DNA of 61,095 nucleotides from Candidatus Pacearchaeota archaeon. Its GTDB lineage: Archaea; Nanobdellota; Nanobdellia; Pacearchaeales; UBA284. Below are positions 121 to 4,145 of the stretch, in pieces. The first letter of the stretch is position 1; every line of letters starts with the position of its first letter. The position numbers and the translations under genes are program-made. The stretch spans positions 1 through 61,095 of the forward strand of contig JAWAPZ010000003.1 of assembly GCA_038894195.1 (NCBI GenBank). The letters are read 5' to 3'. The notes under the pieces are model-generated. The model was not told the origin of the DNA and did no database searches. It saw only the letters and a list, made by a program, of their open reading frames with translations.

Positions 121-1785
121 ATGAAAATCCTTACATTGCATTGTGACTATATTAAATTTAAGCCAACCAAAGAAGCAATAAAAGAGGCTGAAGAAACAGA
201 TAAAAAACTTATCGAGGTGAAAGAATGTCTTGTAGTTTTTACAGCAGTTGAGCAACAGGACTCTGAAAATTCTAGTGCTATTATTAAAAAATTTACAGAA
301 AATGTTACTGAAATTGCGGGTCAAGTTAAATGCAAAACTTTGGTTTTATATCCTTATGCCCACCTTAGCTCAAAACTTGCAAAGCCAACACTGGCCGAAG
401 AAATTCTAAAAAAAGCCGAGCAGCAATTAAAAAAGAACTTTAAAGTCACAAGAGCACCTTTCGGTTGGTACAAAGAGTTTGAGCTGAAATGCAAGGGACA
501 TCCTCTTTCAGAATTATCAAGAGAAATCACTGCAGAAGAAAAAGAAGAAAAAGCAGAAAAAAAAATTCTAAAAATAGTAATAAATAAGAGCAAGCTCAGC
601 GAGAATGATCATAGAATTCTAGGCCAGAAACTTGATCTTTTCTCATTCAATGAAACAGCCCCTGGAATGGTTTTCTGGCATCCTAAAGGCCTTGTCCTTA
701 GAAATTTATTGATAGAATTTTGGCGTAAAGAACATGATAAAGCAGGTTATCAAGAAATACTAACACCACAAATAATGTCAAAAAAATTGTGGAAACTTTC
801 AGGGCACTGGGATCATTACAAAAATGCCATGTTTTTCACTTCTGCAGGAAAAGAAGAATTCGCAATAAAACCAATGAACTGCCCTGGTGCAATGTTGCTT
901 TTCAAAGAAACTCCTAGAAGTTATAAAGAACTGCCTTTAAGATTCTGTGAACTTGGCATAGTCCATAGATTAGAACTTTCTGGAGTTTTAGCAGGAATGC
1001 TTCGTGTGATTCAAATAACACAAGATGACGCCCACATATTCTGTCAAGATGATCAAGTCGAGCAAGAAGTGATAAAAATTATAGAGTTAATTGACAAATT
1101 TTACAAAGTTTTTGGTTTTTCTTACCATGTTGAACTTTCAACAAAACCAAAAGACCATATAGGTACAGACGATGAATGGAAAAAAGCTGAAAATTCTCTA
1201 GAAAACGCATTAAAAAAATTAAAACTAAAGTTTAAAGTGAATCCTGGGGAGGGTGCTTTTTACGGTCCTAAGATAGATTTTCACATTAAAGATTCTCAAG
1301 GAAGAACCTGGCAGTGTGCTACAATACAACTTGATTTCGCGATGCCGCAAAGATTTAGCCTCGAGTACACTAGCCAGGATAACAAAAAACATGTTCCAAG
1401 AGTGATTCATAGAACAATTTATGGTTCACTTGAGCGATTCATAGGAATTCTAACAGAACACTATAAAGGACAGTTTCCCTTATGGCTTTCACCAACCCAA
1501 GTTCGTGTCTTAAGTTTCACAGCGAGAAATGTGAAAGCAGCTGAAAAAATTTTCAAGTTACTTAAAGAAAATTTTAGAGTAGAACTAGACATAAGAGACG
1601 AAAGTGTACCATACAAAATTCGTGAAGCAGAACTTCAAAAAATCCCTTACATAATTGTAATTGGTGATAAAGAAGAAAAAAATAATACACTGGCAGTCCG
1701 TGCTCGTGGCAAGAATCCGGAGTTCGGCGTAAAGCCTAAGAATTTTATAGAAAGACTTAAAAAAGAGGTTGAAGAAAAAAAATAA
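121..1785 (+). CDS. thrS: Threonyl-tRNA synthetase (archaeal editing domain + bacterial-type catalytic core)
   Basis: N-term YPYAHLS..RAPFGWYK..KGHPLSELSR; core DHRILG..PGMVFWHPKG, KPMNCPG, GEGAFYGPKID; anticodon-binding domain. Confidence 0.97.
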   Translation: MKILTLHCDYIKFKPTKEAIKEAEETDKKLIEVKECLVVFTAVEQQDSENSSAIIKKFTENVTEIAGQVKCKTLVLYPYAHLSSKLAKPTLAEEILKKAEQQLKKNFKVTRAPFGWYKEFELKCKGHPLSELSREITAEEKEEKAEKKILKIVINKSKLSENDHRILGQKLDLFSFNETAPGMVFWHPKGLVLRNLLIEFWRKEHDKAGYQEILTPQIMSKKLWKLSGHWDHYKNAMFFTSAGKEEFAIKPMNCPGAMLLFKETPRSYKELPLRFCELGIVHRLELSGVLAGMLRVIQITQDDAHIFCQDDQVEQEVIKIIELIDKFYKVFGFSYHVELSTKPKDHIGTDDEWKKAENSLENALKKLKLKFKVNPGEGAFYGPKIDFHIKDSQGRTWQCATIQLDFAMPQRFSLEYTSQDNKKHVPRVIHRTIYGSLERFIGILTEHYKGQFPLWLSPTQVRVLSFTARNVKAAEKIFKLLKENFRVELDIRDESVPYKIREAELQKIPYIIVIGDKEEKNNTLAVRARGKNPEFGVKPKNFIERLKKEVEEKK

Positions 1786-2324
1786 TGTCATTCAAATCTT
1801 TATTAAAACAAGTCGAAACAAGTTCAAAATTTCGCGAATTTAAAAAAAGAAACCCTAGAGCTAAACTTTATAGCGCATTCTTTACTCTGCGAACAGCATT
1901 TGGTAATCTTTTGGAGGATTCTCAACAGCTTGATTATCTAATTGGCAAAGAGAGAATAGTAACTTTTTCCTTGCAAGATGATCAGATAATCATGAAAGAA
2001 GATAAACTAGAAAAATTAGTTGAAAAATTCACAGCTTTAAAAAAAGATATAACAACTGATATTGAGGATATAAAAGAAATTGTACAAAAAGAAATGAAAA
2101 AACAAAAAATATCCTCAGAGATTCAGGAAATTGTGGCTATCCTACAAAGACAAAAAGAAAATCAGATTTGGAATATAATTGTTGTTCTTTCCTCTTTAGA
2201 CATGCTAAGATTGCATATAGACATACAAGGAAAAATTCTTGTTAACAAAAAAGAAAGTTTTGCAGATATCATAAAATTTAAAAAAGGAAATAAGGAAAAA
2301 GAAAGCTCACCAAAATATGTGTGA
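1785..2324 (+). CDS. Hypothetical protein
   Basis: 179-aa ORF overlapping the thrS stop by 1 nt. Confidence 0.75.
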   Translation: MSFKSLLKQVETSSKFREFKKRNPRAKLYSAFFTLRTAFGNLLEDSQQLDYLIGKERIVTFSLQDDQIIMKEDKLEKLVEKFTALKKDITTDIEDIKEIVQKEMKKQKISSEIQEIVAILQRQKENQIWNIIVVLSSLDMLRLHIDIQGKILVNKKESFADIIKFKKGNKEKESSPKYV

Positions 2325-2362: not shown

Positions 2363-2435
2363 GCCTCTGTAGCTCAGATGGTAGAGCACCATCCTCGTAA
2401 GATGGGGGTCCTGGGTTCAATTCCCAGCAGAGGCT
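2363..2435 (+). tRNA. tRNA-Thr(CGU)
   Basis: GCCUCUG/CAGAGGC acceptor, CCAUC-CUCGUAA-GAUGG anticodon arm, GGUUCAAUUCC T arm, U73. Confidence 0.96.
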
Positions 2436-3215
2436 TTAAACACCCTCTTCTCTTTTTTTCTTCATTTCTTCTAGTTTTTTTCTTACAAGTTTTCTTGCTT
2501 CTTCAAGGTCAATTTCTTTTTTTTCTTCAACTTGAAAAAAATCCTTAATATTTATTTTCTTTTTAATCCCTTTATTTTCAAGGAAAACTTTTGCAATTAA
2601 ATAAAGAGCAAGCCCTATGCTACTAGGACTTTTGTTATTACAAGGAACAACTATATCAACATATCTCGTCAAATTATTTGTACTGCATAAAGCTACTACA
2701 GGAATTCTTGCAGAAATAGCATCTCTCAATGCATTCTTGTCAAGCCATGGATCTGAGATAAACATTAATTCTGGTTCAAAAAAATCAACAAGAGCAGGAT
2801 TAGTGATTATACCAGCAGGATATTTTGTGAAAACCCTTATTCCAGTCAATTCTCCAAATAATTTTACTAATTTCTCGCAATTTTCTCTTTTGCAACAAAA
2901 AACAATTTTTTCTGCATCAAATTGTGAAAGAAATTTTGCCGCAATTCTTATTTTATCATCTACTTTTTGTGTATTTAAGACGGCTATTCCATCAGCCCTC
3001 CTCTTATAAACATATTCACGCATATCGGGAGTAACAGCCCTCGTACCAAGATGTAATCCAGCTTGAATGTAGTATTCCACAGGGACAAGCAATTTCTCTT
3101 CTTTTTCTTGTTTTTCTTCAGATTCTTCCTTCTTACTTTCTTTCTTCTCCTCTCCTTCTTCCCGCTTTTCTGTTAGAGCTTTTTCATCTTTGTCAATTTT
3201 TTTCTTTCTTGGCAT
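2436..3215 (-). CDS. rps2: 30S ribosomal protein uS2
   Basis: AGLHLGT..YKRRADG, DPWLDKNAL, IPVVALCSTNN, PCNNK motifs. Confidence 0.93.
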   Translation of the reverse strand: MPRKKKIDKDEKALTEKREEGEEKKESKKEESEEKQEKEEKLLVPVEYYIQAGLHLGTRAVTPDMREYVYKRRADGIAVLNTQKVDDKIRIAAKFLSQFDAEKIVFCCKRENCEKLVKLFGELTGIRVFTKYPAGIITNPALVDFFEPELMFISDPWLDKNALRDAISARIPVVALCSTNNLTRYVDIVVPCNNKSPSSIGLALYLIAKVFLENKGIKKKINIKDFFQVEEKKEIDLEEARKLVRKKLEEMKKKREEGV

Positions 3216-3464: not shown

Positions 3465-4145
3465 ATGAAGAAACTCTTATTTTTTTTGTTGACTTTATTG
3501 CTTCTAGTTTCAGTTTCAGTTACAGCTTTAGCAAATGAAAAAGATATTGAAAGAGTTGATGTCATACATTACTTAAAGCCGGGAAATGGCATGCCAAGAG
3601 AAGCAAAAGCACAGGCGTGTTACAAATTACTTGGAATAAAATGGGACACTGCAGTCAATTATACAATTAATCCAACAAATCCACAGGGTTTGCCAGAAAA
3701 CTTTATAATTTTAGCCATCTCAACCTCAGCAGAAACATGGGATGACGCAACTTCAAGCGAGCTTTTTAATGACAACTATCTTGTAAATTATACGGCACAA
3801 TATGGTATAAGAAACAATGAAAATGCGCTTGTTTTTGCTGATTATCCCAGTGATAATGTAATAGCAATAACTTCTTATTGGTATAGTCGAAAGACAAAAA
3901 CAATACTAGAGTTTGATGTATTATTTAACACAAGGTTTACTTGGGGAGATGCTACACAAAACACGAGTGTAATGGACTTGCAGAATATAGCAACTCACGA
4001 GTTGGGTCATGCTGTAGGGATGAACGATGTTTATCAAACTGTTTGTTCTGAAGTTACAATGTACGGCTATTCAAGTTATGGAGAAACTAAAAAAAGAACT
4101 TTAGAACAACCGGACATAACAGGCTTGCAAAAAATGTATGGTTAA
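3465..4145 (+). CDS. Secreted metzincin (matrixin-like) zinc protease
   Basis: Signal peptide; HELGHAVGMND zinc motif; Met-turn VTMYG; GGAGGT SD. Confidence 0.88.
   Translation: MKKLLFFLLTLLLLVSVSVTALANEKDIERVDVIHYLKPGNGMPREAKAQACYKLLGIKWDTAVNYTINPTNPQGLPENFIILAISTSAETWDDATSSELFNDNYLVNYTAQYGIRNNENALVFADYPSDNVIAITSYWYSRKTKTILEFDVLFNTRFTWGDATQNTSVMDLQNIATHELGHAVGMNDVYQTVCSEVTMYGYSSYGETKKRTLEQPDITGLQKMYG

Follow-up and report, generated by a model that had tools for sequence, protein, structure and literature searches.

How does a threonyl-tRNA synthetase (ThrRS) come to join the editing domain of one type of the enzyme to the catalytic body of the other? The question is raised by thrS near one end of contig JAWAPZ010000003.1 from a Candidatus Pacearchaeota archaeon (assembly GCA_038894195.1), of which we analyzed positions 1 to 61,095; "the window" refers to this whole stretch of 61,095 nt. 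The enzyme is a textbook example of deep divergence into two types, with editing domains that are unrelated to each other. In the accepted pairings, the archaeal editing domain (ED), a DTD-like Ser-tRNA(Thr) deacylase, goes with an R-type body, the N2 editing domain goes with a C-type body, and Crenarchaeota have a split form. ThrRS-C is the common type, present in each of life's three domains, and ThrRS-R is a rare archaeal type, with about 29% identity between the two (PMC3191353). The archaeal ED has been tied to ThrRS-R in the literature (PMC5424206), and an N2-type editing domain has been reported for about 30% of archaeal genomes (PMC12003907). We conclude that thrS of the window is likely a natural intragenic recombinant that carries a C-type body behind the lineage's own ED and works as the sole ThrRS found in this DPANN archaeon, whose genome is small.

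An archaeal editing domain on a C-type body

A single open reading frame (ORF) with an ATG start encodes a protein of 554 amino acids and spans both the ED and the body. The two modules are thus fused in cis, as had been proposed from the DNA letters alone, and >120 homologues have the same architecture. The parts of the gene are as follows.

121..1785, forward strand: thrS, encoding a mosaic ThrRS (ED plus ThrRS-C body), the sole threonyl-tRNA synthetase gene found in the genome
121..531, forward strand: DTD-like archaeal ED, residues 1-137 (PF08915; PDB 4rrf and 2hl1)
532..606, forward strand: linker, residues 138-162, carrying the probable recombination junction of the ED and body modules (alignment with relatives that have an R-type body)
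607..1464, forward strand: class II catalytic domain of the ThrRS-C type, residues 163-448 (alignment with E. coli ThrRS and signature columns)
1498..1764, forward strand: HGTP-type anticodon-binding domain of the C-type body, residues 460-548 (PF03129, E 9e-18)

The original prediction described the N-terminal ~140 residues as an archaeal editing domain, and the Pfam and PDB matches agreed. Pfam model PF08915 (tRNA-Thr_ED) covered residues 1-136 over its full length (E 2e-53), and a PDB search with residues 1-150 gave end-to-end matches to the EDs of M. jannaschii (4rrf, E 3e-37) and P. abyssi (2hl1 and 1y2q, E 1e-34). The motifs quoted in that prediction were all found, namely YPYAHLSS (77-84), APFGWYK (112-118), and KGHPLSELSR (125-134) in the ED and DHRILG (163-168), SGHWDHY (227-233), and KPMNCPG (250-256) in the body. 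Pfam also placed tRNA-synt_2b at 242-448 and HGTP_anticodon at 460-548. NF011500, the Ser-tRNA(Thr) hydrolase model, matched the ED region alone (191 bits vs a cut-off of 362). No TGS or SAD (N2) domain was detected in the protein, either by Pfam or by phmmer with DPANN TGS and N2 queries; there was also no N2 remnant, and only 25 residues separate the ED from the DHR motif.

The body (residues 150-554) scored 380-409 bits against bacterial, E. coli, and human ThrRS (E. coli about 391) and aligned to residues 239-634 of E. coli ThrRS, the E. coli anticodon-binding domain included, with merely one or two single-residue gaps. The catalytic protein of Aeropyrum pernix (ThrRS-cat, or ThrRS-1) matched less well, at 184 bits compared with about 390 for the E. 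coli enzyme. Among the NCBIfam models, the protein passed TIGR00418 (572.3 bits; cut-off 383.65) and failed the archaeal-type model NF003068 (408 bits; cut-off 484) because its body is C-type; it also failed the test for canonical C-type architecture because TGS and N2 are missing. On the same two models, a same-family relative with an archaeal-type body (L173) scored 350 and 621 bits, and a DPANN TGS-N2 enzyme (L028) scored 715 and 199 bits. At all columns checked, the protein had the C-type state (DHR, SGHWxxY, KPMNCPG, TQDDAHIF, and GAFYGPKID, plus two indels). Together with the placement of the body in the C clade at a support of 100 (see below), these results uphold the claim that the core is of the E. 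coli type and not of the Pyrococcus type.

Both active sites are strictly conserved in an alignment of 63 proteins in which the ED directly precedes a C-type body (ED-C). Invariant residues were Y77, P78, H81, P113-G115, Y117, K118, K125-P128, and E131 in the ED and H229, C254, R283, E285, D303, H305, H430, and R439 at the synthetic site. The ED pocket residues fall in the blocks YPYAHLSS, PFGWYK, and KGHPLSE that align with the PDB EDs, and H81, Y117, K118, and E131 match the pocket residues H83, Y120, K121, and E134 of P. abyssi. In the body, the zinc ligands C254, H305, and H430 correspond by alignment to C334, H385, and H511 of E. coli, R283/E285 of motif 2 and R439 of motif 3 align with their E. 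coli counterparts, and the equivalent of E. coli H309 is present as the conserved H229. An AlphaFold2 model built on the 63-protein alignment had a mean predicted local distance difference test score (pLDDT) of 90.5 and showed two folded modules joined by a disordered tether at 140-152. Block means of pLDDT were 85-95 over residues 1-120, 64-71 nearing the linker, and <50 at 140-152.

The protein would thus combine archaeal-ThrRS-like editing with E. coli-type synthesis. The conserved residues, together with what is known of the two parent families, suggest a mechanism. A dimeric class II core would activate threonine on its zinc site and charge tRNA-Thr, but would mis-charge some serine to give Ser-tRNA(Thr). 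The CCA end of Ser-tRNA(Thr) would then move to the ED, tethered in cis by the short flexible linker, where the serine ester would be hydrolysed.

Relatives with the same editing domain and locus but another body

Family f1, to which the window belongs, contains both body types. Genera g227 (G367, G354, and G363) and g232 (G375) have an ED with an R-type body (ED-R; 620-644 amino acids), and genera g1 (which includes the window), g2, g226, g228, g230, and g231 have ED-C (550-581 amino acids). The ED-R and ED-C genes of f1 share one locus: upstream lies a divergent gene of one and the same family, and downstream lies a homologue of the following ORF.

1785..2324, forward strand: ORF of 179 amino acids without a known family, conserved as the gene that follows thrS and used as our locus marker

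This ORF has no Pfam match. By tblastn, 4/4 ED-C and 3/3 ED-R genomes of f1 that were examined have a homologue of it immediately after thrS and in the same orientation. In a genome of another family (G336), tblastn found no homologue, whereas ORF clustering placed one a few genes away.

Comparison with these relatives shows an abrupt change at the end of the ED. The ED of the window protein is 62-64% identical to ED-R kin vs 63-69% to ED-C kin; body identity is 28% to ED-R kin vs 62-74% to ED-C kin. ED-R and ED-C kin are colinear with the window protein up to ...KGHPLSELSREI (residue about 136) and unrelated beyond it, and windowed identity to ED-R kin falls from 55-78% to 15-40% past about residue 140. 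Downstream of this point, R-type kin have a linker of 65-75 residues followed by PPHxKLM, and C-type kin have a linker of 25-45 residues followed by NDHRILG. At this locus, same-family kin have the same ED in front of an R-type body, so the change is better explained by a body swap behind a resident ED than by the joining of free genes. A fusion of a ThrRS-cat/ThrRS-ed pair of the Sulfolobales kind was rejected, given the same-locus ED-R kin and the 184 bits of A. pernix ThrRS-cat.

The linker itself varies among ED-C kin. In L012, L186, and L189 it is 20 residues longer (about 140-175) and contains Y(D/N)(Y/C)KQLL(N/R)QISK. We considered this KQLL..ISK stretch as a vestige of N2, but its faint resemblance to NKQLQRIYG at the N2 end is too weak to support a claim.

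Disagreement between editing-domain and body trees

We constructed body trees with FastTree (112 rows) and with a quick IQ-TREE run under LG+C20 PMSF (77 rows), and the two agree on the points cited here. The C and R types were separated at a support of 100, and the core did not group with archaeal-type ThrRS. Instead, the window body and seven other ED-body proteins made up one clade (99 and 96), which was sister to P0225, also an ED-body protein, and then to the Micrarchaeota protein P0217 (95 and 97), in which an N2-like domain stands between ED and body (ED-N2x-body). This clade and its sisters were placed among DPANN N2-type sequences, and most of the 25 sampled bacteria, the Desulfobacterales excepted, formed a separate, derived group.

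The ED tree gave a different picture. All EDs from the window's order (13 ED-C and 10 ED-R) formed one clade with a Shimodaira-Hasegawa-like approximate likelihood ratio test (SH-aLRT) support of 98, and the ED-R and ED-C sequences of f1 were interleaved within it. Two proteins of family f13 (L038 and L048) have a window-type body, yet their EDs group in another ED clade (96). Conversely, the ED of L023, from the window's order, is of the own-order kind, but its body falls in another C-body lineage (99 with P0141). An approximately unbiased (AU) test rejected a single clade for the EDs of window-type-body proteins (delta lnL 98.6, p = 0.0029). Separate phylogenies of the two modules, a check proposed with the original prediction, thus give trees that disagree.

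The trees also contained candidate transfers of whole genes. Three N2-body ThrRS from Methanomassiliicoccales/Thermoplasmatota (L075, L145, and L146) lay inside a Bacillota/Bacteroidota clade (support 100), which looks like whole-gene transfer from bacteria to archaea. Two bacterial ThrRS from Desulfobacterales (L119 and L134) lay among Woesearchaeota TGS-N2-body sequences (97-99), a possible transfer from archaea to bacteria. Since such inter-domain transfers of ThrRS-C occur in the data, the C type has a complicated deep history.

Distribution of the hybrid and its possible intermediates

The source genome (535 kb in 9 contigs) is 70% complete; a whole-genome search found one ThrRS and one ED, and no second ED was found in the 70% covered. 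Free-standing ED-like ORFs were present as a second ED in other genomes of the order that have an ED-C thrS (G085:C3:33064-33465, G106:C10:96-485, and G378:C11:1904-2293); these open frames are 141-187 amino acids long and score 77-83 bits against PF08915.

A search of 5.8 billion proteins returned >120 proteins of 549-592 amino acids with the same three Pfam domains and 58-73% identity to the window protein. Where named, their sources are Pacearchaeota, Woesearchaeota, and Aenigmarchaeota, and single-contig genomes are among the assemblies with the same ED-body junction. An ED was present in 55/61 genomes of the window's order, and 294/301 sampled genomes of its phylum (Nanoarchaeota; the count takes in two unpublished genomes, G243 and G244, which carry none of the individual claims made here) matched the window body, most of them at the C-type level. 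Among 52 fetched loci of the phylum, C-type bodies had four N-terminal arrangements, listed here with their approximate lengths.

TGS-N2-body: about 635 amino acids
N2-body: about 570 amino acids
ED-N2x-body: about 720 amino acids
ED-body: about 565 amino acids

A further 17 loci from the window's order were fetched and scored with ED, C-body, and R-body queries. In the 31 sampled Thermoplasmatota, every C-type body had N2 and every R-type body had an ED. This survey of DPANN homologues, also suggested at the outset, shows that the combination of ED and C-type body is widespread and that ED-R kin are present even within family f1.

The ED-N2x-body proteins were found in Woesearchaeota and Micrarchaeota (for example MBI5223733.1 and QQG38622.1). 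Their N2-like domain scored 33-117 bits, vs about 200 for an intact N2, and most had other residues in place of the HxxxH and CxxxH editing motifs; P0240 retained HxxxH and the Cys but had lost the second His. That ED-N2x-C proteins keep a decayed N2 implies that the ED was added to an N2-bearing enzyme, and these proteins may represent a stage before N2 deletion.

Two other groups of ED-bearing proteins were seen. Nine proteins of 510-593 amino acids (P0188, P0193, P0214, P0224, P0242-P0244, P0264, and P0270) matched the window body at the anticodon-binding domain alone (40-65 bits); possible identities are trans-editors resembling ThrRS-ed, or fusions of an ED to a different or degenerate catalytic body. 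In P0142 (784 amino acids), P0169 (800 amino acids), and P0189 (772 amino acids), the ED is followed by an insert of ~200 residues and then by an R-type body.

Origin of the hybrid gene

We interpret thrS as a recombinant gene because its ED is 62-64% identical, and its body 28% identical, to same-locus ED-R kin, and because the two trees disagree. The simplest reading would be recombination through a single crossover where the ED ends. At least two body swaps in the window's order are implied, since L023 pairs an own-order ED with a body from another C lineage. By parsimony, the direction of the swap would be from R to C, because every sampled R body has an ED and C bodies mostly have N2. The ancestor of the order would then have had the canonical archaeal enzyme, an ED with an R-type body, and recombination at the ED end would in several lineages have put a C-type body in its place. 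The ED-N2x-body proteins would fit a sequence in which the ED was placed before an N2-body enzyme, displacing TGS, after which the redundant N2 site decayed and N2 was deleted. We lean, though only slightly, toward a general form of this scheme, in which the DPANN ED is a fixed anchor behind which R and C bodies (about 28% identical) have repeatedly been exchanged in place by intragenic recombination, with one editing fold serving both bodies and a redundant N2 then decaying and being deleted.

Several points weigh against a recombinant origin or against parts of this scheme. Support in the body trees is SH-aLRT only and comes from quick runs, the ED alignment is short (143 columns) with most inner branches unresolved, and the group used in the AU test was chosen after the trees were seen. 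The bacterial sample is small (25 in the trees), was drawn from the matches listed, and is biased to query-like sequences; archaeal sampling consists of Nanoarchaeota and Thermoplasmatota, is thin beyond these, and has the same bias. The R-to-C direction is drawn from parsimony and not from a species tree, and editing in cis by the ED on a C-type body is likewise something that we infer. Finally, when the tree is rooted on the R-type outgroup, some ED-C proteins with long branches fall basal within the C clade, so that ED-C may be older than assumed, although this root is unreliable because of the long branches.

The last point bears on a different history, in which archaea have passed on the pairing of ED and C-type body vertically since early times, this pairing may be the ancestor of both types, and the N2 forms in DPANN are secondary. 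The ED-C proteins that are basal under this root are P0132, P0126/P0129, and P0147, and the spread of ED-C proteins over Pacearchaeota, Woesearchaeota, and Aenigmarchaeota would also fit such an age. However, the basal rows are long-branched beside a very long outgroup branch, and long branches meet at the root. Moreover, the window clade is nested deep inside N2-bearing sequences, ED-N2x-C proteins keep a decayed N2, and the EDs of ED-C and ED-R kin are intermixed in one order and at one locus. We therefore regard an old ED-C architecture as improbable.

A second possibility is that the body was acquired recently from Bacteria, which would make the gene a true inter-domain chimera. Many bacterial ThrRS among the matches listed share 48-57% identity with the window body, its similarity to E. 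coli ThrRS is about equal, and the Methanomassiliicoccales sequences inside the Bacillota/Bacteroidota clade show that inter-domain transfers are known in these data. Nevertheless, its nearest relatives (55-74% identity) are all DPANN proteins, both trees put the window clade among C-type sequences of Nanoarchaeota and Micrarchaeota and outside the clade of most sampled bacteria, and C-type bodies occur in most of the 294 matching Nanoarchaeota genomes. This origin is thus a shade less probable still; judged by trees with this small and biased bacterial sample, the body is a DPANN ThrRS-C and not a recent bacterial import. The original description of the core as bacterial-type therefore stands insofar as the core is E. 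coli-like, but the core is not specifically bacterial, because the trees nest it among DPANN ThrRS-C.

The remaining alternative, that the junction is an artefact of assembly or binning or that the ED is a decayed remnant on an enzyme in effect free of editing, is very improbable and on present evidence appears excluded for practical purposes: the gene does begin 120 nt from the contig end in a genome that is 70% complete, but the junction cannot reasonably be an assembly artefact because >120 proteins from independent assemblies, single-contig genomes among them, share it at 58-73% identity, and the ED pocket is invariant in 63 proteins and folds confidently in the AlphaFold2 model.

Neighbouring genes

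Downstream of the 179-amino-acid ORF, the window contains the following two genes.

2363..2435, forward strand: tRNA-Thr(CGU), substrate of the ThrRS (ARAGORN)
2436..3215, reverse strand: gene for ribosomal protein S2 (PF00318), convergent with and abutting the tRNA gene, part of a neighbourhood conserved in ED-C kin

A tRNA-Thr gene had been placed about 580 bp downstream of thrS, and tRNA-Thr(CGU) indeed starts 578 nt past it. We considered this linkage as a functional feature and rejected it, as no tRNA-Thr was found in the thrS loci of 14 relatives (the gene plus about 1-2.5 kb on each side); only close kin such as G364 have tRNA-Thr near thrS. In one ED-R and two ED-C genomes, the window included, tRNA-Thr(CGU) has the same G1-C72, C2-G71, C3-G70, and U73, so there is no sign in these three that the tRNA changes with the body type. 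The tRNA-Thr(CGU) of G364 (L198:1501-1580) has an intron-like insertion of 8 nt right after position 37 of the anticodon loop that the window copy lacks.

The tRNA gene ends at 2435 and the S2 gene, on the opposite strand, at 2436, which leaves zero spacer between them. S2 was found near thrS at 60-78% identity (tblastn) in G368, G364, G349, and G267, and the window S2 has a Lys/Glu-rich N-terminal extension of roughly 40 residues. Farther downstream (3465-4145, forward strand), an ORF of 226 amino acids has a signal-like hydrophobic N-terminus and the motif HELGHAVG (an HExxH zincin signature); from its sequence it is probably a secreted metalloprotease.

Comparison with known systems

We found no description of a ThrRS with an ED and a C-type body in the full-text literature searched, whose coverage leaves out most subscription journals, and none is described in PMC3191353, PMC5424206, PMC12003907, PMC7373986, PMC11580382, PMC8821087, or PMC9437257. 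ED-C proteins are already in the databases, annotated plainly as threonine--tRNA ligase. To the accepted pairings, they add a fourth that is widespread. Pfam architecture alone files such hybrids as ordinary archaeal ThrRS, and mosaic genes can mislead whole-protein ThrRS trees in work on horizontal gene transfer and "homeoalleles". Of most interest, in our view, is the proposed in-place swap of the body. ED-R and ED-C at one locus in one family, ED with a dead N2 and a C-type body, and ED-C make up a natural series that hints at the origin of the hybrid. The series offers a concrete, testable case of module exchange in an essential translation gene and of the loss of redundant proofreading domains, as well as natural pairs for studying how the ED communicates with a foreign catalytic body. 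If the proposed history is true, two catalytic bodies as different as these can share a single editing fold, and "homeoallele" replacement can be partial, which is not described in the literature searched.

Each parent family shares one half of the window protein. The archaeal-type ThrRS-R (NF003068/PRK03991; P. abyssi 1Y2Q/2HL1 and M. jannaschii 4RRF) has the same ED, pocket residues, domain order, and Pfam architecture, and it is ThrRS-R that occupies the equivalent locus in same-family relatives. In contrast to ThrRS-R, the window protein has a body that is only about 28% identical, with other signature motifs and indels, and a linker of 25 rather than 65-75 residues. With canonical ThrRS-C (E. 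coli 1QF6; TIGR00418), it has in common the catalytic and anticodon-binding domains, the zinc ligands, and motifs 2 and 3; however, it is without N1 (TGS) and the AlaX-like, zinc-binding N2, and editing is presumably carried out by an unrelated fold.

Two systems come closer in arrangement. Crenarchaea such as Sulfolobus and Aeropyrum have the split ThrRS-cat/ThrRS-ed, in which editing takes place in trans: the ED resides on a second protein that also has an anticodon-binding domain (Korencic 2004 and Shimizu 2009, summarised in PMC7373986). As in the window protein, the archaeal ED there works for a catalytic body without a functional editing domain, but the window protein is one polypeptide from one gene, and its body bears only a distant similarity to the catalytic protein of A. 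pernix (184 bits). The ED-N2x-body ThrRS, a sister lineage in the body tree, likewise combine an ED with a C-type body; they keep an N2 of roughly 170 residues that has lost HxxxH/CxxxH, whereas N2 is entirely gone from the window protein.

Among aminoacyl-tRNA synthetases, the closest analogue of such a natural module chimera is the LeuRS of Natrialba magadii, a bacterial-type LeuRS with an archaeal tRNA-binding domain (PMC4005665). It differs from the window protein in enzyme class, in the domains involved, and in concerning duplicated genes of a haloarchaeon and not an in-place change of a sole gene. The nearest parallel in process is that of the ThrRS homeoalleles, where C and R types alternate among close archaea with one copy per genome and replacement by recombination in a syntenic context has been proposed (Andam & Gogarten 2011, PMC3191353). 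In that case the whole gene is replaced, whereas here the body alone would have been exchanged, with the ED kept and a single crossover inside the gene.

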